DNA from: an uncultured Clostridia bacterium | GTDB lineage: Bacteria; Bacillota; Clostridia; Christensenellales; CAG-314 | Direction of reading: 5' to 3' | NCBI GenBank assembly: GCA_947630455.1 | Contig: CANRHP010000002.1 | Span: 29,544-93,543, forward strand | DNA length: 64,000 bases | In this document: piece after piece, positions 46,160-58,736 of the stretch | Position numbering within the stretch: the stretch's first letter is position 1 | Layout of the letters: each line of letters opens with the position of its first letter | Notes under the pieces: model-generated | Told to the model about the DNA's origin: nothing | What the model saw: the letters and a program-made list of their open reading frames with translations, nothing else | The model's database searches: none | Position numbers and translations under genes: made by a program

Positions 46160-48169
46160 TTATGCAAGCGGCAGCGTTGCGGAAAAGATCGTAAAATTAT
46201 CCTTGCGTTCATACGTCAATTCCCCATGCATTGTCTTGATCGCGTTCTTTGCCAAAAACAGACCCAGTCCGGAGTTGTTTTCGGAGGGATTGCCCGAAAC
46301 GAACGGGGCAAAGACATTTTTATCGGTAGTAATTCCCTTCCCGTCGTCTATGACGTCGAGGCGGCATACCCCCTTGTGTTTGACGGCGGACACAGTTAAA
46401 TGCGAACAAAACGCGTGTTCGATCGCGTTCATTACCAAATTGAGTATCACGCTTTCCAAAGCAATTTTTTTTGCATATACGTTTAATATTTCGGGCAGCA
46501 CAACCGTCAGAACAATTCCGTTTGCTTCGCAGTCGGGGCGCAAATCGTTTGTTACGCTTTGCACGATCTGACTCAAGTTTATCACCTCGGACTGTTCCGC
46601 CACGTAGTTTTGCTTGTTGTACTTTCCCAAATCGGCAAAGTCTTTTTTCAGCTCCGCATTTTTTTGTAACAAGTAATCCACCTTTGAGACCAATTCGGGC
46701 TCGGATAGATTTTGCCGCAGATCCGTCAGAGAATCGTTCATCCCGACGACGGTCCTTTTCATATCATGGCTCACATACAGCAAGATCTTATCCCGTTCGG
46801 CAATAACATTCTGCAGGCTTTGAGTCTGCCGCTCGACCTCCTGTTCCAGATTGGTCGTAAGATAGCGATTGTGTACTTCTGCAGAGGCAAATTCGCGAAG
46901 TCCCAACACAAGCGTGATCCCCAGCGCCCCATAACACAACCAAAACGCCGGAGAAAACATGATCAATGGGATCGGCTGAGTCGCAAACAGAGCCATAGCG
47001 GTCAAAACGCCTGCGATTATCGAATTGAGGCGCAGTCCCAAGGGCTTATTTTGATATACGTCCCATATGGTAGACGAATAGATGACAACAATGCAGGCAA
47101 ACACCAGGACGATATAGGTATAGCAAACAGCGGTATAAGCGGCTATGCTCGTGCAAAAGGGGGACAGAAATGCCGATACGGTTGCGGTAATCGCGGCAAT
47201 GCTTGTCAAGTACAAAACCGGGACTTTTCCTATTTTTTTCGGAAGATACAGCGTCGCGGCAAAGAGAATAAATCCAACCGAAAAACGTCGCATTCCAAGC
47301 AGAAAGTACGGAACGGTCGTATAACCGAACAACATATACGTTGAAAACAGCACCGAAAAAATTCCTGCGGCAAACAGTAGCTGCGGAATGAAGGAAAAAG
47401 ACCGTTTCAAAATACATATCAAAAGAAACAACAGCAGCGTAACCGCTCCGAGGATAGCGCCGATCAAAAGGACGGAGCGGTTCTCATTGACGGCTCTGTG
47501 TACTGCCGCGTCTTCCCCGATCAAAACGGGTCCCATAAATCCCACAAAGTTATCGTTGTCCGCCTCGTAATGGATTGTCACTCTGCATTCTCTTGAATAT
47601 TTACCTTCAGAGGAAATAGGTATATCTATAAATAAAGGCTCCGTTGCCGTTTGGTGCAGGACGGTGTCGTCAAATTCAGATGGCGATGAGTAATTGATAT
47701 AGTAGTTGATATTGTATCTGTCTATCGCGCCTACGTATTCTTCATTTTCGTACTGCACAAACACGCTGCATGCGGCATATACGGGAGGGATGTACATTGT
47801 CAGGTGCCAATTTCCGTCCGGCTGCAAAAGCCGGTTCAAGCTTTCCTTTTCTGCCCATTCTTCCGTCGTCAAAGTGTCTATAAAAAATTGGTACGTTCCC
47901 CGTTTCGCAGGCTTTGCGCCCTCGTTTTCATTGGATACGACATTGTTAAGCTCCGCAAATTTATTGGGAAGATAGTTGAACGCCGTCATTTCCATCACGC
48001 CCTTCACGTCTGCAATGGAAACGGTGTTGACCGAAACGCCCGCAAGCTCTTTTGTGCGTACGGGCGTCTCCGCTATGGCGTTCTGCCCCGTAAACAGCAA
48101 AACGAGTGAAAATGTCAGGCAGATAACAAACAAACCTACCAACACAAGCACGTTTCCTACTTTTTTCAT
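46160..48169 (-). CDS. Sensor histidine kinase with extracellular domain and 7-TM module (7TMR-DISM type)
   Basis: 669 aa. A signal/anchor and a ~230-aa ectodomain are followed by seven hydrophobic helices. HisKA 'LLYVSHDMKRTVVGM'. HATPase 'IDDGKGI...NSGLGLFLAKNAI'. Confidence 0.88.
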   Translation of the reverse strand: MKKVGNVLVLVGLFVICLTFSLVLLFTGQNAIAETPVRTKELAGVSVNTVSIADVKGVMEMTAFNYLPNKFAELNNVVSNENEGAKPAKRGTYQFFIDTLTTEEWAEKESLNRLLQPDGNWHLTMYIPPVYAACSVFVQYENEEYVGAIDRYNINYYINYSSPSEFDDTVLHQTATEPLFIDIPISSEGKYSRECRVTIHYEADNDNFVGFMGPVLIGEDAAVHRAVNENRSVLLIGAILGAVTLLLFLLICILKRSFSFIPQLLFAAGIFSVLFSTYMLFGYTTVPYFLLGMRRFSVGFILFAATLYLPKKIGKVPVLYLTSIAAITATVSAFLSPFCTSIAAYTAVCYTYIVLVFACIVVIYSSTIWDVYQNKPLGLRLNSIIAGVLTAMALFATQPIPLIMFSPAFWLCYGALGITLVLGLREFASAEVHNRYLTTNLEQEVERQTQSLQNVIAERDKILLYVSHDMKRTVVGMNDSLTDLRQNLSEPELVSKVDYLLQKNAELKKDFADLGKYNKQNYVAEQSEVINLSQIVQSVTNDLRPDCEANGIVLTVVLPEILNVYAKKIALESVILNLVMNAIEHAFCSHLTVSAVKHKGVCRLDVIDDGKGITTDKNVFAPFVSGNPSENNSGLGLFLAKNAIKTMHGELTYERKDNFTIFSATLPLA

Positions 48170-48852
48170 AATACCTCTCCTGTAAAGCAGTAACCCCTGT
48201 TAAATTCGGTGCGGATTATATCGCTTTCGGGCATAGCGGCTTTTAGTTTTCTGCGCAGCGATGACAAATGCGTTCGTATAGTTGTGGTGTGCAGACTTGG
48301 CGCACACCAAATTTTTTCATAAATTTCGTCCGAAGTAAAATATTGACCGCGGTTTTTTACCAAAAAGAATAAAATGTTGAATTCGGACGGTGTAAGCGAA
48401 ATGGGCATATTTTTATATTTTACGGTACGTGTGTTGGCGTCCACGGAAAAATCCCCGAAAACTTCTATTGCGTCCGCTTTGGGTAAAAGCCGCATTGCGA
48501 TATGCGTTTCCAAAAGGCGCATAGAACAGGGCTTTATCACGTAATCGGTCGCACCCGAGGTAAGCCCCGTGAGAATGGTGTCCTCACTGTCCAAAGAGGA
48601 CAAAATAATTACAGGCGGCAATTCGGGAAATGCGCTGAAAAGCTCTATCCCCATGCTGTTTTTGAGTATCAGATCCAACACAACAGCGTCGAAGTCCCCC
48701 TTCTCTGTCAAAAGCTCGACGGCTTCTTCCACGTCAGACGCTGTATAAACGGCATTTGTGGGAGAAAAATATGCGATCATTTCCTTTTTTAATTTTTCAT
48801 CGTCCTCAATAAACAGCAGATTTCTTTCGTAAACAGTATAATTCATATGCAC
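48166..48852 (-). CDS. OmpR-family response regulator
   Basis: 228 aa. Receiver domain ('LLFIEDDEKL', phospho-Asp 'AVVLDLIL', 'DYVIKPC'). Winged-helix output domain ('LTPSEFNILFFL...IRTHLSSLRRKL'). It overlaps the kinase gene by 4 nt. Confidence 0.92.
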   Translation of the reverse strand: MHMNYTVYERNLLFIEDDEKLKKEMIAYFSPTNAVYTASDVEEAVELLTEKGDFDAVVLDLILKNSMGIELFSAFPELPPVIILSSLDSEDTILTGLTSGATDYVIKPCSMRLLETHIAMRLLPKADAIEVFGDFSVDANTRTVKYKNMPISLTPSEFNILFFLVKNRGQYFTSDEIYEKIWCAPSLHTTTIRTHLSSLRRKLKAAMPESDIIRTEFNRGYCFTGEVL

Positions 48853-48974
48853 TTCCGTTTTCTTATAGTTTTATTATATCAAACAAATAAAATACACGCA
48901 AGCCGGATAACTGTTTCACCGTTAAATAATCTCGTAAAGAATTGTTAAGGTTGCGTTTGGAGCGGGTTTTAATA

Positions 48975-49003
48975 TTGCCTCAAAAATGAATTTACGCTAA
49001 AAT
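48975..49003 (+). promoter_or_regulatory. Candidate promoter of the giant surface-protein gene
   Basis: TTGCCT (48975-48980), a 17-nt spacer, then TAAAAT (48998-49003). This placement puts the G18 tract in the 5' UTR. Confidence 0.45.
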
Positions 49004-49046
49004 ATTTCATGAAAAAACACTCGGAACAAAACCGAAGAAAAAAAAT

Positions 49047-49064
49047 GGGGGGGGGGGGGGGGGG
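49047..49064 (+). repeat. Homopolymeric G18 tract (preceded by A8) 6 nt upstream of the start codon
   Basis: Counted directly: 18 consecutive G at 49047-49064 and 8 consecutive A at 49038-49045. The sequence reads 'aaaaaaaaTGGGGGGGGGGGGGGGGGGcgctttATG'. Confidence 0.95.
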
Positions 49065-49070
49065 CGCTTT

Positions 49071-52000
49071 ATGACCACAAAGAAAAGATATTTCACAGCA
49101 ATACTCATTGCTGTTGCAGCATTGTGCCTTTTGGCGGGCACATTGTTTTTTAATACTGCCAACGCGAGCAACAGTGCAAGCGGAACAAATACCGCAGATG
49201 AATGGAAAGGTGCGCAAACCACAGGCAATCTCATTTATTACACCGATAACAATTCCAGCGGTAAGTCTAAAAAAACTTTGGCAGATTTTGGCTGGCAAGG
49301 TCTTGGCAATGTTGACCCATATGCGTTACGCTACAATCACAGTGATGTTGGTTTAGGAAATTCGAGTTTTGGCTGGGTCATACATGCAAACACGAATGAT
49401 GGTCTTGGTAACGATAATTACACCGGCGGTGTGTGGTACACGATCACGCTTTCCGAAGCAGACAGGGTCAAAGCCAATAAGGGGGATTTGACTATTTCTG
49501 CATCCTCTGTAAACTGGCACCAAACATCGTCAGGTATTCACGCTCGTTTACAGCTGATTTTTTACGATGCCGCTGGTTCGGAAATTGCGTCAAAAGATCA
49601 TAGCCGGTTTCTTAATATCTTCCAAAATACAAATCCGGTAAATCTATCTATATCCGATTACAAAGTTCCTGCGAACACGGCGACGATACGTTACTATATT
49701 TCCAATAATAATAGCTTAGCAGGAAAGCCCTCTATTGGTGCTTTGACATGTACTCTTACCGACAAAACAGCGCCTGCGGTTACGGGTAATGTTTTTTTGG
49801 AAAAGACGAACGTTGCGGACAGCAACAATAATATTGTCGTTGCGGGCAACACGATAAAATACAGCGTAGAATTTAACGAAAAGGTAAGCATTACTGCCAA
49901 CGGCACGGCGAATATCACGTTAAACGGAAACGCTTTTGTTTCTTCAAGCACCGCTGAACTCGTTACCGAAAACGGTAAAAGCAGGGTTTGTTACACGTTC
50001 ACATTGCCCGACAAAAACGAAAACGGCGAGGTAAAATTTTCCTCCGTTTCGGGGCTTGCCGTCAAAGACGAGGCGGGCAATGCCTATACTTACAATAACA
50101 GCGGCCTTTCCGCCCCGACCTTGCAATATTACAGGGCAATGACCGTCTCTTCGAGTTTGACACATCTGAACTTTTCGGGCGGAGGAAAGGCGACGTACAA
50201 TACCAACTATTCGGCAGCTTTGTCGACGGTGCGCGGCTATAACCTGCCGAATTCCATCACCGTCAAAGTGGGCGGCAGTACGCTTGCGCAGGGCAGTGAC
50301 TATACCTACAACTCCGGGACGGGCGCGATCACGATTACCGGCTCCAAGATCACGGACGATATTGTCATCAATGCGTCGGGCGTTGCAAAGAAAATTGACG
50401 TCACATTGAACCCGCAAAGCGGTTTCGGCGGAACGGACAAAGTGACGGCGACTTTCGACAGCGCAATGCCTGGCGTGGTGGTGCCGACGCGCACGGGCTA
50501 CACCTTTGACGGTTACTACACGCAAGCCGACGGCGAAGGCGTGAGATATTACGACGCAAAAGGACAAAGCGTTAAAAGTTGCGATTTCGTAGATGCGTTG
50601 ACCCTGTATGCGCATTGGGTCGCACATACCTATACGATAACATTTAACAAAAACAAACCCGGAAACGCAAGTGAGGATGTGCAGGGAACGATGTCCGATG
50701 TTCCGCGCACCTACGACGACGGTAGCAAAGCTCTGCCGAAAAACGGCTTTACGCTGACGGGCTGGACCTTCCTGGGCTGGGCAACGAACGCACTAGGCGG
50801 ATCGGTTACTTATGATAACGAAAAAGCGGTACAGAATCTGACGGATAGAGATGGCGATACGTTCACACTTTACGCCGTATGGAGGGCAAATACCTACACA
50901 GTAAACTATCATTCCAACAAGCCTTCGGGCGCGAGCAGCGAGGTCGTTGGTGCGACCAACGAGTCATCGCACACCTACGACGTGCAGAGAGCGCTTACTA
51001 CTAACGGCTTTTCGCTCACTGGTTGGACCTTCCAAGGCTGGGCAGCGAGCGCCGAAAGCAGCAATATTGTGCATAGAAACGACGCGTCGGTCAAAAACCT
51101 TACGGCAGTGGACGGCGCCACAATCCACCTTTACGCCGTATGGACCGCAAATACATATACAATAAGGTTTAACGAAAACAAACCTAAAAATGCAAGTGCG
51201 AATGTGCAAGGAAGCATTTCCGATGTACCGCGCGTTTACGACGACGGCAGCAAAGCTTTGCCGCACAACGACTTTACGCTGCATGGCTGGACCTTCCAGG
51301 GTTGGACAACAAGTGTAGCAAGCGACAGCGTAACTTACACAAACGGTCAACCGGTGCAGAATTTGACGGAGAAAAATGACGAAACAGTCACGCTTTACGC
51401 CGTATGGAAGGCAAATTCGCACACGATCACCCTCAACGCAATGGGCGGTACCAACGCGGGCGCGCTCACGGCAACCTTTGACAGCGCGCTTCCCGGTATC
51501 ACTCTTCCCGAGCGACACGGCTACAATTTCCGCGGTTATTTCAATTCGGAATCGGGCGGCGAGCAATATTACAAGTCGGATGGTACTGCGGTTGACAATA
51601 AAACCTTTACGATAGATGACAACATTACGCTCTATGCTCAGTGGACGCCCATCACTTATACGATCCGTCTGTACAGCGAGGGCAAATATATCAAGGATAT
51701 TACAGGCGTCGTATTCGGCGTGCTCAATTTGCCCGCGGCGGAAACGTGCGGTCTCTCACGGAAGAATTTTGATTTTGTCGGTTGGAACATATATGATGAA
51801 CAGAACTGGGCAATGTACCATGCCGACACCCTCTATACTACCGGACTTACCGGCGAGCAGGGCGGAGTTGTGGTGCTGTATGCGGCATGGCAGGAAAAGC
51901 CTATCCACTCTTTGTTCTACGACGCAAACGGAGGCTTCGGAGCCCCTGCAACAGAACAGCTGCACGAGGAGGAAGAGATCACTCTTTCGGATGTCCTTCC

Positions 52001-55000
52001 CGCCAAAGACGACCACACCTTTGTGGGCTGGGCAGTGACGGCGGAGGCAACAGAGGCGAAATATTCCCGCGGCGATAAGTTTACCATGGGCAGCGCTGCC
52101 GTAACCTTGTATGCTGTGTGGAAGCACAATCCGTCCTTTACATACAATGCCAACGAGGGCACCTTTAACTACAACGTTGCGACAACTTATCCTGCGCCGG
52201 AGTCGTTGATTAAGATTACGGAAATGCAGCCCGTTCGTACCGGATATGAATTTATCGGTTGGGCTGCAGACAAAGACGCCGAAAAGGCGGATTATAACAG
52301 CGGCGACAGCTTTACAATGCACGACGAAGATATCGTTCTTTATGCCGTATGGAAACGAAATGATTTTACCGTTTTCAAAAATATAGCGGATGGTTACGGC
52401 GTTTCGGGGCTTAAGGACAGCTATTCCTACGGCGATGACCTCAAATTTACCGTTAGCGGCGAATATCCCAAGGTGTATATCAACGGCACGCTTGTTTCTC
52501 TCGACGAAGATGGATACTATTCGTTCAAGGTCACCGGAAATATCTCCGTCACCGTTGTCGATGTTTCGTCGCTTGTTCTACTGTATTCGGCGAACGGCGG
52601 CGAGGACGCTCCGACGGACGAGACTATTTATTCCATGGGCAAAGAGGCAACCGTTTCGGAAATCGCTCCCGTGCGTTTGGGCTATACGTTCTGCGGTTGG
52701 TCCGACAACAAAAACGCCGAAGCGGCAAACTACAATGCGAAAGACAGTCTTACTTTTTCGGATAAGGACATGACCCTGTACGCGGTATGGCGCGCCAACT
52801 CTTATACGGTCACCTACAACGCGGCGGGCTGCGCAGGCACGATGCCGAGCAATGTTTATACTTACGGGACCATCGGTACCCTTTCGGAAAATGCGTTTGA
52901 AAGGCAAGGCTTTATCTTTGTCGGTTGGGCGCTTTCGGAGGGCGGAGAATGTCTGTTTGCAGACGGTGACGAGGTTTTGAATCTTTCGGTCAACGACGGC
53001 GACGAAGTCACACTCTATGCTGTCTGGGAACAGCTGAAAACCTTGATCACGTTTGATTCGAACGGCGGCGGCGGTGGAAGTGCAAATCTTTCGGTAGGTT
53101 ACGGCGAAACTCTTCCCGCAAGCGGGTATATGGCTCCCGTACGCAGAGGCTATACCTTCGCCGGCTATTATACGCAAAAAGGCGGCAATGGAGATAAGTT
53201 GTTCGATGAGAATATGTGCCCCATAAATGATGCGGCAAGCAATTGGCACAGATCCGAACAGTACCTCACGCTCTATGCCTATTGGATCCCCACACCGGAA
53301 ACGATCGAGGACACAATCGACACGGTTCAAGACAATCTCAACAAGGCGACAGAGGAGCTTCAATCGGCAATCGACTCAAACCAGACGGATATAAAGGGAA
53401 AAATTTCAGCGTTGGATTCGGCATATCAAGCGGCGGACGAGCTTTTGCGTTCGGAGTTAACGTCGACAGACGATGCACTGGAGGCTAAAATAGCCGCTCT
53501 CGAAAAAAAGATGGAAGCTGCGGATTCCACATTGCAGTCGGCGATCGACGCGGTACAAATAAAATTGGAACAAGCTGCAAAGGATCTTCAAGCAGCAATT
53601 GATGCAAATGAGAAGGATATAGAGGCAAAGGTTGCGGCGCTGGATGCGGCGTATCAAGCGGCGGACGAGCTTCTTCGCTCGGAAATGATGGCGGCAGACA
53701 CTATGATTGACGCCAAAATAGATGCTCTCGAACAAGCAATGCACAATTTGGATTCCACATTGCAGTCGGCGATCGACGCTGTACAAAGCAATTTGGATAA
53801 GGCGGCAAAGGATCTGCAAGCTACAATCGACGCAAACGAGACGGATATCGAGGCAAAGTTCTCTGCGCTGGATGCAGCGTATCAATTGGCAGACAAGCTT
53901 CTTCGCTCGGATATGACGACGGCAGACGATGCACTTGACGCCAAAATAGCCGCTCTCGAACAAGCAATGAAAGGTGTGGATTCCGCATTGCAGTCGGCAA
54001 TAGACGCCGTACAAAGCAATTTGGACAAGGCTGCAAAGAATCTTCAGGCTACAATCGACGCAAATGAGACGGATATCGAGGCAAAGTTCTCTGCGTTGGA
54101 TGCAGCGTATCAATTGGCAGACAAGCTTCTTCGCTCGGATATGACGACGGCAGACGATGCGCTTGACGCCAAAATAGCCGCTCTCGAAAAAGCAATGAAA
54201 AACGTGGATTCCGCATTGCAGTCGGCAATAGACGCCGTACAAAGCAATTTGGACAAGGCGGCAAAGGATCTGCAAGCTACAATTGATGCAAACGAGACGG
54301 ATATAGAAGCAAAGGTTGCGGCTCTGGATGCAGCATATCAATTGGCAAACAAGCTTCTTCGCTCGGATATGACGGCGGCAGACGATGCGCTTGACGCCAA
54401 AATAGCCGCTCTCGAACAAGCAATGAAAAGTGTGGATTCCGCGTTGCAGTCGGCGATAGACGCCGTACAGAGCAATTTGGACAAGGCGGCAAAGGATCTG
54501 CAAGCTACAATTGATGCAAACGAGACGGATATAGAAGCAAAGGTTGCGGCGCTGGATGCAGCGTATCAAGCGGCAGACACACTCCTTCGTTCGGATATGA
54601 CGGCGGCAGATGATTTGCTTGACGCCAAAATAGAGGCGCTTAAAAAAGCAATGAAAAATTTGGATTTCGCATTGCAAGCGTCGATCGATAACGTACAAAG
54701 AAATTTGGACAGGGCGGCAAAGAAGCTTCAGGCGGCAATTGATGCAAACGAAACGGATATCGAGGCAAAGGTCGCGGCGCTGGAGGCAGCGTACAAAGCG
54801 GCGGACGCACTCATCAACAGCGACATTGCAGGGTTAAAAGCACAGGATAGCGTGCTTGCGCAAAGCATTTCCGCACTCGATTCCGCGTATAAGGCGGCGG
54901 ATGAGGCTCTCTGGAAGGGAATCAGGCAAGTAGAGCAGAAACATGATGCATTGGAGCAGCAAAGCGAGAAAACCGCACTTATTTATATGATCATCAATAT

Positions 55001-55079
55001 TGTCCTCGGTTGCATTGCAGTAGCATTGATTGTCACTCTGGTTGTAAAAGTGGTCAAGAAAAAGAATTCGCAGCAGTAA
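49071..55079 (+). CDS. 2002-aa cell-surface protein: signal peptide, novel N-terminal region, about a dozen Listeria-Bacteroides (InlB B-repeat/Flg_new) modules, coiled-coil repeat stalk, C-terminal TM anchor
   Basis: Signal peptide 'AVAALCLLAGTLFFNTANA|SN'. Repeated 'GYTFxGWxxxxxG...Y.....V....D.TLYAVW' modules. Seven ~76-aa helical repeats. C-terminal 'LIYMIINIVLGCIAVALIVTLVVKVVKKKN'. Confidence 0.9.
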   Translation: MTTKKRYFTAILIAVAALCLLAGTLFFNTANASNSASGTNTADEWKGAQTTGNLIYYTDNNSSGKSKKTLADFGWQGLGNVDPYALRYNHSDVGLGNSSFGWVIHANTNDGLGNDNYTGGVWYTITLSEADRVKANKGDLTISASSVNWHQTSSGIHARLQLIFYDAAGSEIASKDHSRFLNIFQNTNPVNLSISDYKVPANTATIRYYISNNNSLAGKPSIGALTCTLTDKTAPAVTGNVFLEKTNVADSNNNIVVAGNTIKYSVEFNEKVSITANGTANITLNGNAFVSSSTAELVTENGKSRVCYTFTLPDKNENGEVKFSSVSGLAVKDEAGNAYTYNNSGLSAPTLQYYRAMTVSSSLTHLNFSGGGKATYNTNYSAALSTVRGYNLPNSITVKVGGSTLAQGSDYTYNSGTGAITITGSKITDDIVINASGVAKKIDVTLNPQSGFGGTDKVTATFDSAMPGVVVPTRTGYTFDGYYTQADGEGVRYYDAKGQSVKSCDFVDALTLYAHWVAHTYTITFNKNKPGNASEDVQGTMSDVPRTYDDGSKALPKNGFTLTGWTFLGWATNALGGSVTYDNEKAVQNLTDRDGDTFTLYAVWRANTYTVNYHSNKPSGASSEVVGATNESSHTYDVQRALTTNGFSLTGWTFQGWAASAESSNIVHRNDASVKNLTAVDGATIHLYAVWTANTYTIRFNENKPKNASANVQGSISDVPRVYDDGSKALPHNDFTLHGWTFQGWTTSVASDSVTYTNGQPVQNLTEKNDETVTLYAVWKANSHTITLNAMGGTNAGALTATFDSALPGITLPERHGYNFRGYFNSESGGEQYYKSDGTAVDNKTFTIDDNITLYAQWTPITYTIRLYSEGKYIKDITGVVFGVLNLPAAETCGLSRKNFDFVGWNIYDEQNWAMYHADTLYTTGLTGEQGGVVVLYAAWQEKPIHSLFYDANGGFGAPATEQLHEEEEITLSDVLPAKDDHTFVGWAVTAEATEAKYSRGDKFTMGSAAVTLYAVWKHNPSFTYNANEGTFNYNVATTYPAPESLIKITEMQPVRTGYEFIGWAADKDAEKADYNSGDSFTMHDEDIVLYAVWKRNDFTVFKNIADGYGVSGLKDSYSYGDDLKFTVSGEYPKVYINGTLVSLDEDGYYSFKVTGNISVTVVDVSSLVLLYSANGGEDAPTDETIYSMGKEATVSEIAPVRLGYTFCGWSDNKNAEAANYNAKDSLTFSDKDMTLYAVWRANSYTVTYNAAGCAGTMPSNVYTYGTIGTLSENAFERQGFIFVGWALSEGGECLFADGDEVLNLSVNDGDEVTLYAVWEQLKTLITFDSNGGGGGSANLSVGYGETLPASGYMAPVRRGYTFAGYYTQKGGNGDKLFDENMCPINDAASNWHRSEQYLTLYAYWIPTPETIEDTIDTVQDNLNKATEELQSAIDSNQTDIKGKISALDSAYQAADELLRSELTSTDDALEAKIAALEKKMEAADSTLQSAIDAVQIKLEQAAKDLQAAIDANEKDIEAKVAALDAAYQAADELLRSEMMAADTMIDAKIDALEQAMHNLDSTLQSAIDAVQSNLDKAAKDLQATIDANETDIEAKFSALDAAYQLADKLLRSDMTTADDALDAKIAALEQAMKGVDSALQSAIDAVQSNLDKAAKNLQATIDANETDIEAKFSALDAAYQLADKLLRSDMTTADDALDAKIAALEKAMKNVDSALQSAIDAVQSNLDKAAKDLQATIDANETDIEAKVAALDAAYQLANKLLRSDMTAADDALDAKIAALEQAMKSVDSALQSAIDAVQSNLDKAAKDLQATIDANETDIEAKVAALDAAYQAADTLLRSDMTAADDLLDAKIEALKKAMKNLDFALQASIDNVQRNLDRAAKKLQAAIDANETDIEAKVAALEAAYKAADALINSDIAGLKAQDSVLAQSISALDSAYKAADEALWKGIRQVEQKHDALEQQSEKTALIYMIINIVLGCIAVALIVTLVVKVVKKKNSQQ
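53300..54930 (+). repeat. Tandem array of seven 228-bp (76-aa) repeats inside the surface-protein gene
   Basis: The marker 'gattcc' recurs at 53523, 53751, 53979, 54207 and 54435, and as 'gatttc' at 54663, giving an exact 228-nt period. The central units are near-identical at DNA level. The outer units are degenerate. Confidence 0.92.
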
Positions 55080-55092
55080 GGAGGTGCATATT

Positions 55093-55821
55093 ATGTGGGC
55101 ATTTCTGCTCAATATTTTCGCAATCGAGGCACAGTATATATGCACTGCCGCATTGATATTGATATGTACTCTTGCCGGCGCACATCTTTATTTGATGCAT
55201 ATACGAAAAACCGACGCGCCTCATGCAGCGGATACGAAGCTGTCGGAACAAAATAAGCAGGCTGAGGAAGAACACTCCGAGAGTAAGAACGGCAGTGGAG
55301 AAATCGCCGCCCTGCCATTTGCCGACAAGGAGCTTGCTCGTAGCGAAATTGAATCAGTAAAATTGTCTGATTATCCGTACGAAGCTGCAACAAACCTTTT
55401 GGAACGCGGGCTTATTAAGTTGGAAAACGAGGAAGAGTCGTCAACCGACTCGGACAGTCCTATCGGGGCAGATTTTGAAAAACGCGAACACGTGTTTGTG
55501 ATGGAAGCTCGAAATTTGATTTCCGATGAGGTCGCAGTATCCTTAATTGAAGAAACGGAAGAAACAGTATTATCAACACCGAAAGCAGTTATCAATATCG
55601 ACGCGCTTTCCGAAAACTATCAGGCAAACGAGACGGTCACGTTGAAATCCCTGAAAGAAAAGAAACTTATTGCAACTTCTGTAAATTACGTAAAGGTGCT
55701 TGCGCGCGGTGTTCTTGACAAGCCCTTGATAGTAAAAATGCCGGATTTTTCTGTTGACGCGGTAAAAATGATACTATTGACAGGCGGTACAGTGATTAAA
55801 TTGAAAACCAAAAGTAAATAG
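55093..55821 (+). CDS. Membrane-anchored protein with acidic linker and ribosomal uL15-like C-terminal domain
   Basis: 242 aa from ATG 55093, with an AGGAGG RBS 8 nt upstream. One N-terminal TM helix ('AQYICTAALILICTLAGAHLYLM'). The C-terminus 'INIDALSENYQANETVTLKSLKEKKLIATSVNYVKVLARGVLDKPLIVKMPDFSVDAVKMILLTGGTVIKL' aligns by eye with the C-terminal half of bacterial L15 ('..[37 protein letters not shown]'). Confidence 0.65.
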   Translation: MWAFLLNIFAIEAQYICTAALILICTLAGAHLYLMHIRKTDAPHAADTKLSEQNKQAEEEHSESKNGSGEIAALPFADKELARSEIESVKLSDYPYEAATNLLERGLIKLENEEESSTDSDSPIGADFEKREHVFVMEARNLISDEVAVSLIEETEETVLSTPKAVINIDALSENYQANETVTLKSLKEKKLIATSVNYVKVLARGVLDKPLIVKMPDFSVDAVKMILLTGGTVIKLKTKSK

Positions 55822-56016
55822 GAACAGCATGCGATAATTTTTATTTGGTTTGACAACTCGGTTTTCGGGGAAATGTTTTGAATACAAATAAACTCGAGTA
55901 GTAAAAAAATGTATCTTGCCAGGGTCACGCCCAATACCTGTTTACAACGGTTAAAGAAGTCGACGCTGTATATTGAATAATTTAGATTTCTAATGCAACT
56001 ATAAAGAAAACCACAA

Positions 56017-56054
56017 TCCCGATGGCACAAACTACCATCGGGACTTTTTGTTTT
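56017..56054 (+). terminator. Rho-independent terminator downstream of the surface-protein operon
   Basis: A 9-bp stem 'tcccgatgg'/'ccatcggga' is followed by 'ctttttgtttt'. Confidence 0.75.
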
Positions 56055-56160
56055 ATAAGGTAAAATTGTCGGTAGAGGCAGACAGATGAACATTCGACGG
56101 CGAAGCGGATAAAACAGGTGTTATGCAACGCTCTTTGCATATAAAAACAGCGAATACTCA

Positions 56161-56198
56161 AAAAAACAACAGAACCTATTTACTGGTTCTGTTGTTTT
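56161..56198. terminator. Bidirectional terminator hairpin
   Basis: A 12-bp perfect stem 'aacaacagaacc'/'ggttctgttgtt' is flanked by A6 and T4. On the minus strand it is followed by T6. Confidence 0.75.
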
Positions 56199-56200
56199 GG

Positions 56201-56224
56201 CTTGGTGACTCCAATGGGACTCGT
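56201..56224 (-). other. Orphan copy of the last 21 nt of tRNA-Glu plus 3 nt of trailer (tRNA 3' fragment / att-like direct repeat)
   Basis: 'gcttggtgactccaatgggactcg' is identical at 56201-56224 and 56380-56403. The upstream part does not fold as a tRNA: there is no matching acceptor 5' strand, and GAC replaces TTC in the T-loop. Confidence 0.8.
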
Positions 56225-56322
56225 CCCCACAAAGTGGGGTAAGCGGAGAGAAGCGGAGCGCTACGTCATTTCGACATCGCATTGGCAGGAAGGATTGGCG
56301 TGGCAAGCATATAGGAACAATG

Positions 56323-56352
56323 AAAAAAGAACACGTTGCTGCGTGTTCTTTT
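56323..56352 (-). terminator. Terminator immediately downstream of tRNA-Glu
   Basis: On the minus strand, the hairpin 'aagaacacg'/'cgtgttctt' is followed by T6. Confidence 0.7.
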
Positions 56353-56381
56353 CATTGCGACTCGAAGCGCCGCCGCTTGCT

Positions 56382-56457
56382 TGGTGACTCCAATGGGACT
56401 CGAACCCATGTTATCGGCGTGAGAGGCCAACGTCCTAGGCCGCTAGACTATGGAGCC
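56382..56457 (-). tRNA. tRNA-Glu (anticodon CUC), CCA encoded
   Basis: The reverse complement GGCTCCATAGTCTAGCGGCCTAGGACGTTGGCCTCTCACGCCGATAACATGGGTTCGAGTCCCATTGGAGTCACCA folds by hand into a cloverleaf. It has a 7-bp acceptor stem, D stem GTCT/GGAC, anticodon stem TTGGC/GCCGA with loop CT-CTC-AC, and T stem ATGGG/CCCAT with loop TTCGAGT. Confidence 0.88.
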
Positions 56458-56473
56458 AAATCTAAGCTTATTT

Positions 56474-56502
56474 AGTATAGCACAAGTTTTAGTTTGGCGC
56501 AA
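56474..56502 (-). promoter_or_regulatory. Candidate promoter for tRNA-Glu
   Basis: The minus strand reads TTGCGC (56502-56497), 17 nt, then TATACT (56479-56474). It lies ~16 nt upstream of the mature 5' end. Confidence 0.5.
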
Positions 56503-56646
56503 CTGTTTGAGAGCAACTCGTAAAACTAAGTTTTAGTTGAGCATAGGCAGCGTTTAAAACAGTAAATATTTAAACGAAAAATAAAAATAATGCCAAGCTT
56601 ATGTGTAAATCACGCACAACATAAATTTGAGAAAAAAATAATCAAC

Positions 56647-57192
56647 CTACATTATGGCGCAAATATCGACAGTTTTATCGTAGAGATATGCCGTTTTAGC
56701 CATTTCATAGCTGTTTAGATAGTCTGATTTATCCGTTTTATTAAGCAATACCGGAATGCGGTGGTGATACTCCGCAACCGGCATAGTGGCGGGTTTTGTA
56801 AGAATTATGAAACGCTCGGTGTCTTGACGCTTGCAAAATCCGGCAAGATACAGCACTCCTCCGTCCTTACGCATAAACAAGTGTTTGTTTTTGTCGTTGT
56901 CCCATTCGTAAAACCCGCTGCACGGTATCACGCAGCGCGCGCGGGCAAAGTCGTCTGCGAAAAACGGCTTTTCCGCAACAGTTTCCGCACGTGCGTTGAT
57001 GAGCAGCTGTTTGCCGTACGGTCCGTCAAAACCCCATTTTACAAATTTGGGCAATGCGTTATCCGCGATAAACACCGGCGCTTGCTGCGAAGGGTAAATT
57101 TCCAGCCGCAGCAGAGGCGGAATTTCCTGTAAATTTCGATAAATTTCCGAGATTTCCGCATGTCCCATATCCATTACATATCTTCCGCACAT
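56647..57192 (-). CDS. SOS-response-associated peptidase (SRAP/YedK family), short form
   Basis: 181 aa. It starts 'MCGRY', with the catalytic Cys2 that is the hallmark of SRAP abasic-site sensors. Confidence 0.8.
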   Translation of the reverse strand: MCGRYVMDMGHAEISEIYRNLQEIPPLLRLEIYPSQQAPVFIADNALPKFVKWGFDGPYGKQLLINARAETVAEKPFFADDFARARCVIPCSGFYEWDNDKNKHLFMRKDGGVLYLAGFCKRQDTERFIILTKPATMPVAEYHHRIPVLLNKTDKSDYLNSYEMAKTAYLYDKTVDICAIM

Positions 57193-57422
57193 ATCGTTAG
57201 GTTGTGCAATTTATCTGAAAACTATGCTTTTACCGTATATGACACAAAAATTTTTTCGATATATGGGACAAAAACGCCGTTAAATGTGTTGTGTAGACTG
57301 AAGAGACAAGAAAACCTTCGAAAGCTGCGATAATATCGGTAATTTCGGCAAACCACGCATTGCGGTTGCGGAATATATGATGTTTATTTTGGGAAACAGT
57401 TGACAACAAGGAGGCTATTATC

Positions 57423-58736
57423 ATGAAAAAAACTTTTACGATAGCATTGGCGGCAATGTGCGTACTTACCATATTGGGTACGTTGTGTTCCTGTGGGATG
57501 GGCGGAGCCGCTTTGTTGGACCAGCCTGCAAGCGCAGAAGCATTGCGTTGGGATGAAAGACAAAGTGAGACCACAAAAAATATTCTTTCTGCGTCCAACA
57601 GTTTTGCGGCTGCCTTTTCCGACGCGGTGTACAAGCAGTTTGGTGAAAAAGGCAGCTTCGCTGTTGCGCCCGTTTCCGTCTATATGGCGTTGTCACTTGC
57701 CGCGGAGTGCGCTTCGGGTGAAACGCGCAATGAGTTGCTCAATGCGTTGGGACTTGATTATGAGGCGCTGCAAAGCAGCTTTGCCACGCTGTACGGCTCG
57801 CTTATCGCAGAGTACAAGGATGACAACAACAAAACAGCCGGCATGTTGGAGTTGTCCAATTCCGTTTGGATGGACGATCGCACGCATGTAAAGGACGCAT
57901 GCATCGACAAGCTTGCAAATAGATATTTTTGCTATCCCTATCGGACGGATTTCGACGGCAACAACAAAGCAGCCAATCGCGCGATACGTGAGTTTGTAAA
58001 GCAGCATACCCACGGACTTATCGATCAGGGTTTCGATTTATCCGAAGATGTTTTGTTTACTCTCATCAACGCGCTGTATCTCAAGGATATATGGAACGAC
58101 GGCGGCAGGGATCTGGGCTTTGCTTCGGGACAGTATTCCTTTGTCAACGGCGACGGCAGCGTCACGTCCACTCCGTTGCTCAGCGGTTACTATTATCGCG
58201 GCAGGGTAGTGGCAACGGAAGCATATCGTCACTTTTTCACTCAAACGGAGCACGGGTACACGCTCAAATTCATTGTTCCCAACGACGGCTACACGATAGC
58301 TGATGTATTCGATGCCGAGACATTGTGCGAAGTCAACGGGATCGACGACTACAAAGCCGACGATGAGGAAAATAAAATTCATTACAGTACGCGCTGCCTG
58401 TTCCCTGAATTCGAAACCAAGTTCGACGAGAACTTAAATGATGTACTGCAAAACAAATTCGGCGTGCACAGGTTGTTTGATCCCTACTCATGCGAATTTT
58501 CCAATCTGACAAACGATGCCGTTTATTGTTGCAAGGTGCAGCACGTCACCGATTTGAAAGTGGATAAGACTGGTATCGAAGGTGTTGCTGTGACAATAAT
58601 GGCAAACGCAGAGTCAGCAGGACCTGACGATTGGGCTGACGTATATGAGGATTTTGTCGTGGATCGCGCGTTTGGCTTTGTACTTACGGACAGATACGGT
58701 ACGATTATTTTCAGCGGTGTTGTGGACAGCTTGTAA
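57423..58736 (+). CDS. Serpin-family protease inhibitor, lipoprotein
   Basis: 437 aa. Lipobox 'LGTLCSC|GMG'. Serpin N-terminal motif 'FAVAPVSVYMALSLAAECASGETRNELLNALG'. Hinge/RCL 'GIEGVAVTIMANAESAGPDDW' and 'FVVDRAFGFVL'. Confidence 0.85.
   Translation: MKKTFTIALAAMCVLTILGTLCSCGMGGAALLDQPASAEALRWDERQSETTKNILSASNSFAAAFSDAVYKQFGEKGSFAVAPVSVYMALSLAAECASGETRNELLNALGLDYEALQSSFATLYGSLIAEYKDDNNKTAGMLELSNSVWMDDRTHVKDACIDKLANRYFCYPYRTDFDGNNKAANRAIREFVKQHTHGLIDQGFDLSEDVLFTLINALYLKDIWNDGGRDLGFASGQYSFVNGDGSVTSTPLLSGYYYRGRVVATEAYRHFFTQTEHGYTLKFIVPNDGYTIADVFDAETLCEVNGIDDYKADDEENKIHYSTRCLFPEFETKFDENLNDVLQNKFGVHRLFDPYSCEFSNLTNDAVYCCKVQHVTDLKVDKTGIEGVAVTIMANAESAGPDDWADVYEDFVVDRAFGFVLTDRYGTIIFSGVVDSL

Follow-up and report, generated by a model that had tools for sequence, protein, structure and literature searches.

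A giant, probably fibrillar adhesin-like surface protein of uncultured gut Clostridia with a predicted lectin-like head and a putative membrane-rooted helical stalk

A giant surface protein shared among uncultured Clostridia

We analyzed a 64 000-nt stretch of DNA from an uncultured Clostridia bacterium (contig CANRHP010000002.1 of the assembly GCA_947630455.1, positions 29 544–93 543; hereafter the window), whose longest open reading frame (ORF) by far is an intact frame of 2002 codons with an ATG start at 49071–55079 on the forward strand. As judged from its sequence, the product of this ORF is a real giant cell-surface protein of uncultured gut Clostridia, an unusual form of the known fibrillar adhesins and no new type of system. 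Its parts are ordered from the N- to the C-terminus as a signal peptide, a head domain, an Ig-like domain, a small β-domain, 11 Flg_new modules, a helical stalk, a transmembrane (TM) helix and a short tail with the residues KKKN. The reading that we favor, with a probability of roughly 65%, is that the protein forms a fibrillar adhesin-like surface fiber, which would be expressed conditionally under a dedicated two-component system (TCS) encoded next to it. In favor of this reading, 15 full-length relatives share the head, the Flg_new array and a proline-free helix, and each of them closes with a hydrophobic segment followed by basic residues.

The definition of fibrillar adhesins by Monzon and Bateman treats Flg_new as a stalk domain and regards gaps in the annotation that lie distal to the anchor as candidates for adhesive regions; jelly rolls were also reported there among new adhesive domains (PMC9210967). 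The length of 2002 aa and the 11 repeated Flg_new modules of the window protein agree with this definition, and its distal head, to which no hidden Markov model (HMM) of a known adhesive domain matches, models as a jelly roll resembling lectins and carbohydrate-binding modules (CBMs). What the protein does not have is a recognized surface anchor of the LPXTG-type, SLH, CWB or choline-binding kind, the place of which is taken by a TM helix.

A head domain of a new sequence family with a common predicted fold

A first-pass annotation, made from the letters of the window alone, had described a giant exported protein with a signal peptide followed by a region of ~400 aa that could be assigned to no family, and both points held. 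The signal peptide (aa 1–33; 49071–49169, +) has a basic N-terminus, a hydrophobic segment at aa 6–30 and then an A-N-A↓S site, where cleavage is predicted, and the motif A-x-A↓S-[RN]-S..GT[ND]T at its end is kept in relatives. No Pfam or NCBIfam match was obtained for aa 1–440 even at E ≤ 5, with insignificant matches such as those to DUF7850, BclA_C and Sgo0707_N2 in the Pfam search at this threshold rejected as identities of the head.

Pfam has no model for the family of the head domain (aa 36–235; 49176–49775, +). When 1.84 billion representative proteins were searched exhaustively with a profile, this family proved small: 59 representatives reached E ≤ 1e-3, of which 46 also reached E ≤ 1e-10. 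Except in one weak match (P0064, residue 364), the start of the head is never more than about 150 residues from the N-terminus, and the proteins that bear it are usually 1600–2900 aa long. A word-seeded search of 5.8 billion clusters proved insensitive for this family, returning seven matches to the N-terminus, where only two real relatives were found, and four matches to the anchor. Nine head loci were present in one-genome-per-species GTDB data, eight in metagenome-assembled genomes (MAGs) labelled uncultured Clostridia and one in an uncultured Firmicutes, and, to judge by the names of the isolates, the sources include human gut, Hadza and rabbit samples. A close relative is labelled Candidatus Coproplasma, and a member of the P0024 cluster carries the NCBI name ‘InlB B-repeat-containing protein [Candidatus Coproplasma sp.]’.

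At the sequence level, the head found no counterpart in the PDB: the single sequence returned only cyclophilin noise at E > 0.1 and a 32-sequence profile returned no match at E ≤ 10. Structure prediction and fold comparison of the N-terminus, which the first-pass annotation had proposed, gave a confident head only when 32 sequences were supplied. AlphaFold applied to aa 1–445 with three sequences yielded a pLDDT of 25–65 over the head and this part was discarded, while the AlphaFold2 (AF2) model built from an alignment of 32 family sequences (pLDDT 93.1, pTM 0.90) is an all-β sandwich with one short helix, a predicted jelly roll of lectin/CBM type. Its Foldseek neighbors in the PDB were sugar-binding jelly rolls, namely the N-glycan-binding domain of Fbs1/Fbs2, CBM22, an alginate CBM and the lectin-like domains at the C-terminus of Klebsiella phage depolymerase tailspikes (E 2.6e-6 to 1e-3, TM-score 0.43–0.57, identity 9–18%), and those among predicted viral structures were tail-fiber, minor-tail and CenC/F5-8C-type domains.

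On this model, the head combines a sequence family that is new with a fold that is old and typically binds carbohydrates. It could not be placed in CBM22 or FBA (the Fbs1 SBD), to which there was neither a Pfam match at E ≤ 5 nor a PDB profile match at E ≤ 10, so that the likeness is one of fold only (TM-score ~0.5). The novelty that had been claimed for the N-terminal region thus survives for the sequence family and not for the fold, and a match to a known adhesin or enzyme domain, which had been named beforehand as speaking against such novelty, exists at the fold level only.

Two further β-domains separate the head from the repeat array. The first begins after a D-K-T-A-P linker (aa 236–352; 49776–50126, +) and was modelled by AF2 as an all-β, Ig-like sandwich with a pLDDT of ~80–86 over ~aa 255–335 from an alignment of three sequences only; it has no Pfam match. 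The first-pass annotation had noted Ig-like segments in the N-terminal region. The second is a small β-domain (aa 353–440; 50127–50390, +) with the signature ‘GYNLPxxITV...YTYNSxTGxITI...DIVI’ and again no Pfam match. It recurs as tandem units in the unrelated proteins P0003–P0007 (56–62% identity over 9–17% of the query) and is present in Bacteroides proteins. One of the P0003–P0007 proteins with these units carries PF04773, which we take to be a FecR-like domain.

The Flg_new array

The region at 50391–53285 (+) comprises 11 Flg_new (Listeria-Bacteroides or InlB B-repeat) modules, delimited by HMMs and by 11 LYAxW module ends from aa 512 to 1401, and one insert domain of ~70 aa (aa 1095–1165). 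The curated cut-offs of the repeat families were exceeded: PF09479 (Flg_new) matched in nine stretches with E = 7.5e-68 and 225 bits against a cut-off of 27, TIGR02543 (List_Bact_rpt) with E = 6.7e-35 and 119 bits against 20.95, and Flg_new_2 with 24.0 bits, marginally over its gathering cut-off of 23.6 bits. Membership in the tandem Flg_new/List_Bact_rpt repeat proteins was found accordingly, and the InlB-B-repeat array that the first-pass annotation had drawn at ~50390–53290 is real. The three ‘near-duplicate’ double modules of ~85 aa that it had seen within the array are not near duplicates, as the modules of ~88 aa at aa 517–779 share only 45–66% identity.

A proline-free helical stalk with a non-heptad periodicity

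The array is followed by a predicted α-helical stalk (aa 1406–1965; 53286–54965, +) of seven 76-aa units, recognized by Tandem Repeats Finder (TRF), composition and periodicity. TRF reported a tandem repeat of 228 bp (76 aa) in 6.4 copies at 53341–54806, and the central four units are 85–92% identical at the nucleotide level. A proline-free stretch of 593 aa reaches the C-terminus with a glycine content of 0.8%; the stalk itself has no proline and four glycines in 553 aa. An Ala/Asp/Leu-rich helical region had been proposed for this part and its composition was confirmed (Ala 23%, Asp 14%, Leu 11%), while its description as heptad-like was not. The hydrophobic periodicity peaks at 3.62, which equals 76/21 (76 aa making 21 turns), and the power at 3.5, where a canonical left-handed heptad coiled coil should appear, is ~0 (z = −1.1). 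Arithmetically, the 76-aa unit corresponds to three heptads and five hendecads. All of the 16 family stalks (186–861 aa analyzed; zero proline in any) peak at 3.55–3.62.

At 99.5° per residue, the phase of the hydrophobic moment was constant within about ±30° in every window of the stalk but the last one, next to the membrane. The phase concentration in this test, which takes in four windows inside each 76-aa unit, was R = 0.95 (weighted) compared with 0.20 ± 0.10 in shuffles (maximum 0.46). Because one unbroken stripe runs parallel to the helix axis, and a bundle folded back on itself should show a phase reset at its loops, the stalk most likely forms a long, straight, non-heptad and multi-stranded α-helical rod. 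If fully extended, the 555 residues would span up to ~80 nm at 0.15 nm per residue.

Pfam matches within the stalk (Baculo_PEP_C, Apolipoprotein, SHE3, ZorA and Mu Gam) had few or no individually significant stretches, and we read them as compositional and not as homology; the sole weak match above its curated cut-off was Baculo_PEP_C (52 versus 38 bits), with no individually significant stretch. An antisense ORF of 413 aa (53457–54698, −) lies wholly within the stalk repeats and was rejected as a gene, being most likely a by-product of the codon composition of the repeats.

A predicted membrane helix in place of sortase or SLH anchoring

The C-terminal end of the protein (54975–55079, +) consists of a TM helix (aa ~1969–1995, hydropathy up to 2.97), the basic tail KVVKKKNSQQ, predicted to be cytoplasmic, and the stop codon, in agreement with the single C-terminal TM helix and KKKN stop-transfer signal read from the sequence before. 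Within the stalk and TM module, conservation in the closest relatives is highest over the membrane-proximal ~100 aa and the TM helix (75–78% identity in L009 and L010), and the pattern ‘IYMIINIVLG...VVK..KKK’ marks the C-terminus family-wide. Since a cleavable-type signal peptide is combined with a C-terminal stop-transfer helix and a positive-inside tail, the predicted topology is that of a type I membrane protein with its bulk outside. The earlier term ‘tail-anchored’ is a misnomer, because the signal-peptide-like segment (aa 6–30 with its AXA site) is present and conserved.

The absence of LPXTG, SLH and choline-binding motifs, also noted in the first-pass annotation, was confirmed in two ways, as neither regular expressions for LPXTG-like, NPQTN, SLH-like and choline-binding motifs nor a Pfam search for such domains gave a match in the 2002-aa protein. 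The hydrophobic segment and basic tail expected of a sortase substrate are present, yet LP.T[GASN] and NP.TN occur nowhere in the protein, which places it outside the LPXTG class, and the SLH domain PF00395 was absent from it in a Pfam scan, which places it outside the SLH-anchored class.

Relatives offer comparative support for the proposal that the helical region and the TM helix serve as an anchor in place of LPXTG or SLH. A proline-free helical region of ~230–910 aa is present in 15 of the 18 full-length Flg_new-type relatives, and 14 of these 15 passed a strict threshold for a C-terminal hydrophobic segment, the 15th (P0038) having a weaker hydrophobic segment before its basic tail. In the other three, P0028, P0033 and P0045, the head and the Flg_new array are kept, and three SLH domains (PF00395, E = 1e-26 to 1e-31) occupy the C-terminus instead of the stalk and TM helix. 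As these two alternatives sit on the same passenger, both C-terminal cassettes would serve envelope attachment, and the comparison supports an anchoring role of the stalk and TM module.

A conserved two-component system and a candidate operator

The two genes of a TCS lie divergently upstream of the giant gene. The proximal one encodes a response regulator of the OmpR/PhoB family (48166–48852, −; probable ATG at 48846), identified by the Pfam domains Response_reg and Trans_reg_C with a PhoB-like NCBIfam match under its cut-offs, and its exact 226-aa product has been called in three other assemblies. The second gene of the operon encodes a sensor histidine kinase (46160–48169, −; Pfam HATPase_c, E = 2e-16), for which hydropathy indicates an N-terminal signal/TM segment, an extracytoplasmic region of ~200 aa, a block of about six TM segments and the kinase core; Pfam recognizes only HATPase_c in it and the sensor part is unannotated. 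In each of the seven related loci with enough flanking sequence, orthologs of this TCS adjoin the giant gene on its upstream side, with identities of 75–87% for the response regulator and 57–80% for the histidine kinase, and both proteins are far better conserved across the related loci than the head (35–53%).

Between the TCS and the giant gene, we found a conserved 16-nt box, GTAAAGAATTGTTAAG (48934–48949, +), with the direct half-sites GTAAAG and GTTAAG 10 bp apart, which is a candidate site for an OmpR-type regulator. The sequence GTRAAGAWTTGTTAAG was matched exactly and once per locus in seven related loci, each time in the region that separates the TCS from the giant gene, and the degenerate pattern of the 16-nt box occurred without mismatch in all eight loci, that is, the window and L003 (4721–4736), L005 (9761–9776), L006 (3359–3374), L008 (9776–9791), L009 (5621–5636), L010 (9747–9762) and L011 (7486–7501). 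The window contains one exact match, with 0.18 chance matches expected at up to two mismatches. In the alignment of the intergenic regions, which have otherwise diverged, the box accounts for 14 of the 37 invariant columns and forms the longest near-continuous invariant run.

The end of the box is 25 nt upstream of the −35 element of a candidate sigma-70 promoter of the giant gene, TTGCCT-17-TAAAAT (48975–49003, +), which matched 9 of 12 positions in a consensus scan and the −10 region of which aligns with TATGATAAAAT or TATGATACAAT in relatives. The box is also upstream of a putative minus-strand promoter of the TCS operon, TTGCGT-17-TATAAT (48873–48901, −), which we read by eye as a conserved block in the alignment of eight intergenic regions; the consensus scan did not list it, with only three of six positions matching in its −35 element. 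Activators of the OmpR/PhoB family use direct-repeat sites with such placement upstream of the −35 element, and the features of an OmpR/PhoB regulon were found here in a tandem direct repeat that lies upstream of the −35 and is conserved along with the regulator. The box is likely the operator of the adjacent OmpR-type regulator and the giant gene its target. Control by a c-di-GMP riboswitch upstream was rejected, as the Rfam search gave only a tRNA at 56385–56457.

A poly-G tract on the ribosome-binding site

A tract of 18 G (49047–49064, +) covers the Shine-Dalgarno (SD) position 6 nt before the ATG and is the sole G/C homopolymer of at least 8 nt in the window. At this position, relatives have GGGGG or a GGAGG-type purine-rich SD sequence, the closest of them, L010, reading AAAGGGGGT, and the tract therefore looks like an expansion of the G-run of the SD sequence. 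It is not an isolated assembly artifact. The independent assembly of a 99.7%-identical strain (L018) has 18 G with both flanks and without the preceding T, while the contig of a 98%-identical strain (L017) stops inside the tract after 14 G and another (L019) stops 15 nt before it. In the window, an ATG at 49045 opens an upstream ORF (uORF) of nine codons that runs through the tract and whose TGA overlaps the main ATG; this ATG is missing from the L018 allele.

In Gardnerella, tracts of at least 8 nt upstream of surface-protein genes, including those of InlB-B-repeat proteins, are documented sites of slipped-strand phase variation (PMC11287997). The 18-G tract is a candidate slipped-strand switch, which may modulate expression of the giant gene in this strain. 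Scans of JGI metagenomes for length variants gave no further copies of the tract.

A mosaic tip and strain variation

We compared identities segment by segment, taking the head (49176–49775) and the anchor (54756–55076) of the window protein against the corresponding segments of its relatives. L009 and L010 agreed with the window at 75–78% in the anchor, 71–73% in the stalk units, 60–66% in the Ig-like and small domains and 85–87% in the response regulator, and at only 35% in the head. The most similar heads were instead those of L003, P0010 and P0008 (49–52%; L003 52%), of which L003 and P0010 have anchor identities of 30–36% (L003 30%) and P0008 is a fragment without an anchor. This discordance between the relatedness of the head and that of the anchor suggests either that lineages have exchanged the tip or that its evolution is much faster than that of the other parts of the protein. 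Either course fits an exposed, ligand- or antigen-facing tip that is under diversifying pressure or has been exchanged by recombination.

Three other assemblies were 98–100% identical to the window over their overlapping parts, and an exact look-up in the gene catalogue gave no record of the 2002-aa product. Short-read assemblies of this strain or of near-identical ones are interrupted at the repeats or at the tract: L012, which covers 54496–57893 of the window, begins inside the stalk repeats, and L017 and L019 end at the poly-G. The copy number of the stalk repeats in the window could be mis-assembled. In one ortholog (L002/L007; GCA_949294845.1, CASFJH010000001.1, ~nt 2050–2310), an in-frame TAG follows the signal peptide and precedes the head, with the gene call starting within the head, possibly reflecting a pseudogene or a sequencing error.

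Neighboring genes

The gene at 55084–55821 (+) begins 5 nt after the stop codon of the giant gene, with which it is probably co-transcribed, and encodes a small membrane protein. In this protein, a TM segment at the N-terminus and an acidic linker precede a C-terminal domain that resembles ribosomal protein uL15 (PF00828, E = 1.6e-11, aa 169–237). The gene is the next one after the giant gene in L005, L009 and L010, whereas in L003 the match is ~660 nt past the stop codon of the giant gene. The wider family has more than 200 clusters, annotated as ‘uL15 family ribosomal protein’ and usually 370–420 aa long, and its distant members are found in housekeeping neighborhoods without a giant gene, which weakened the idea of a dedicated partner of the giant protein; its link to the giant gene may, with some uncertainty, be one of synteny within the lineage.

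Farther downstream, 2.3 kb away, we observed a bacterial serpin gene (57423–58736, +; PF00079, E = 8e-38), which is adjoined by an SRAP peptidase gene (56647–57192, −) and the tRNA (minus strand) mentioned above. The neighbors of the giant locus include genes for a MATE transporter, SRAP, the serpin and ComEC.

Proposed mode of action and alternative explanations

In the mechanism that we propose, the signal peptide would route the chain through Sec, and the C-terminal helix with its KKK tail would halt transfer, leaving a type I protein with its whole 1930-aa body outside, as family conservation and the exchange for SLH domains suggest. The proline-free rod of ~555 aa, the periodicity of which was computed, would then carry the remainder through and past the wall, with an oligomeric state and a length that we can only infer. 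The 11–12 modules, which are Flg_new by family membership, would lengthen the fiber, and the distal Ig-like domain and the jelly-roll head of ~200 aa, the fold of which was predicted confidently, would bind a ligand, most likely a glycan to go by the fold neighbors. Expression would probably be controlled by the adjacent OmpR-type TCS through the conserved direct-repeat box, and the 18-G tract may modulate it as well.

Several points weigh against this reading. The case as a whole is built on the sequence and predicted structure of a protein from an uncultured organism. The fold matches of the head are weak (TM-score ~0.45–0.57, 9–19% identity), and jelly rolls are very common, also in functions other than that of a lectin. 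The period used in the phase test of the stalk was chosen from the spectrum of the same sequence and the 76-aa repeat guarantees coherence between repeats, so that only the coherence within repeats is independent. The 18 G on the ribosome-binding site could mean that the giant gene is poorly translated in this strain, and the in-frame stop in L002/L007 would make the gene dispensable in at least some lineages.

An alternative that we consider unlikely is that the protein is structural, a tetrabrachion- or PS2-like ‘parasol’ in which membrane-anchored oligomeric stalks hold laterally touching β-rich arms as a surface layer (S-layer). Tetrabrachion, like the window protein, combines β-rich arms at the N-terminus with a long coiled-coil stalk that is not heptad-based (PMC5744192), and its membrane anchor likewise lies at the C-terminus. 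The PS2 S-layer protein of C. glutamicum shares a coiled coil of C-terminal helices and a TM anchor (PMC11398520). The stalk periodicity of 3.62 instead of 3.5 is in line with this alternative, the SLH-anchored relatives show that the passenger is compatible with S-layer-type attachment, and the conservation of the membrane-proximal segment and TM helix in several relatives would fit specific oligomerization. S-layer proteins, however, are usually single-copy, highly expressed and conserved in length, whereas the stalk analyzed here varies about four- to five-fold (186–861 aa) and one ortholog has an in-frame stop; a mosaic head and a variable stalk are as expected for adhesins or variable antigens, and the dedicated TCS and poly-G tract suggest conditional instead of constitutive expression. 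A bolder version, to which we give similarly little credence, is that the protein is a bacterial counterpart of tetrabrachion in Coproplasma-like Clostridia: oligomeric straight stalks of 30–130 nm (periodicity 3.6), rooted in the membrane and passing through the wall, would lift a canopy of Flg_new modules with exchangeable lectin heads, the stalk and TM module would be a wall-independent anchor interchangeable with SLH, and the whole would be switched by the TCS and, in this strain, by the slippage-prone 18-G tract.

The fibrillar adhesin-like reading also competes with that of a nutrient-capture fiber, in which the CBM-like head would tether the cell to particles of dietary or microbial polysaccharide, as the CBMs of cellulosome and amylosome scaffolds do, and not to host tissue or other cells. 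Xylan-binding CBM22, an alginate-binding CBM and CenC-type CBMs are among the fold neighbors, the host lineage is gut-dwelling, and the sizeable extracytoplasmic region of the histidine kinase could sense a substrate. We nevertheless hold this to be improbable, given that equally close fold neighbors bind N-glycans (Fbs1) or capsular polysaccharide (phage tailspikes), that a mosaic head is more typical of surface antigens exposed to hosts or phages, and that the adjacent genes include no glycoside hydrolase, cohesin/dockerin or transporter of such a system but those for the MATE transporter, SRAP, serpin and ComEC. Finally, the ORF might be an assembly artifact or a decaying pseudogene, produced if repeats had collapsed or expanded and the poly-G run were spurious, as could be imagined from the assemblies that break at the repeats and the homopolymer (L012, L017 and L019) and from the missing catalogue record of the exact product. 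This is very hard to reconcile with a frame that is intact over 6 kb, with a domain order and junctions co-linear with those of 15 independent full-length relatives, with three other assemblies that are 98–100% identical over their overlaps, and with a G18 that is internal and equally long in an independent assembly. The fibrillar adhesin-like surface fiber remains the reading that we prefer.

Significance and comparison with known systems

How the abundant Clostridia of the gut, most of which are uncultured, attach themselves to mucus, particles of food or other cells is largely obscure. The locus analyzed here defines a small, lineage-restricted family of giant surface proteins with a lectin-like tip for which databases hold no model, and indicates a way of displaying a fiber on a Firmicute independently of sortase and SLH domains by a long non-heptad rod and a membrane helix. 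It also offers a regulatory circuit that is open to testing, consisting of a conserved TCS, a candidate operator and a homopolymer tract; the ligand of the head, if identified, would give a handle on the niche specificity of these bacteria. The stalk would be a natural example of a straight coiled coil of several hundred residues. As the concept of an adhesive tip, a repeat stalk and an anchor is well established, the finding refines current views and does not overturn them.

Literature searches returned nothing that describes the head family or the combination of Flg_new, coiled coil and TM helix. Each element has precedents, namely Flg_new stalks, jelly-roll tips, TM-anchored surface proteins, non-heptad stalks, control by a TCS and homopolymer switches. 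What is new is the head family without a database model and the very long rod of 3.6 periodicity with a TM helix as an alternative to SLH and LPXTG in Clostridia.

Among known systems, the Flg_new fibrillar adhesins of Firmicutes are likewise very long and secreted, with tandem Flg_new modules and an unannotated distal N-terminus that models as a jelly roll; the window protein differs in its anchor, a 555-aa helical rod and TM helix without a sortase motif or known anchor domain, and in a head family without a Pfam model. The SLH-anchored relatives P0028, P0033 and P0045 share the window protein's succession of head, Ig-like domain, small domain and Flg_new array, but have additional Flg_new and other β-modules, and three SLH domains replace the stalk and TM helix. 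The best structural neighbors of the head model, the Fbs1/FBA SBD, CBM22 and the Klebsiella tailspike lectin-like domains, are 9–18% identical to it, and no profile match links the head to a PDB chain or a Pfam family.

Streptococcal M proteins are dimeric heptad coiled-coil fibrils that are attached by sortase (LPXTG) and have tandem repeats varying in number and a variable distal end. The window protein resembles these and other LPXTG coiled-coil fibrils in having a predicted α-helical fibril of tandem repeats on a Gram-positive surface and a variable distal end, and departs from them in that it has no LPXTG, is non-heptad and uses the helix as a membrane-proximal spacer instead of a functional tip. 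Tetrabrachion, the S-layer protein of Staphylothermus marinus, builds its lattice with a right-handed, parallel coiled coil of four chains and is anchored in the membrane at its C-terminus. With its 553-aa non-heptad helix, TM end and β-rich N-terminal 1400 aa, the window protein has a tetrabrachion-like layout by analogy and without detected homology. The two have in common a β-rich N-terminus and a very long non-heptad coiled-coil stalk, which in tetrabrachion is 70 nm long with undecad repeats (PMC5744192). Tetrabrachion is archaeal, whereas the window protein is bacterial and presumably surrounded by peptidoglycan, no sequence relationship was detected, and the stalk of the window protein has a periodicity of 3.62 (a mix of heptads and hendecads) and not a pure 11/3, a variable length within its family and a mosaic head. 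PS2 of Corynebacterium glutamicum, like the window protein, has a C-terminal TM helix that ends a coiled coil of C-terminal helices (PMC11398520); it is all-α and ~500 aa long with a stalk of ~7 nm and an anchor in the mycomembrane, whereas the rod of the window protein would be about ten-fold longer and is joined to a β-array and a lectin-like head.

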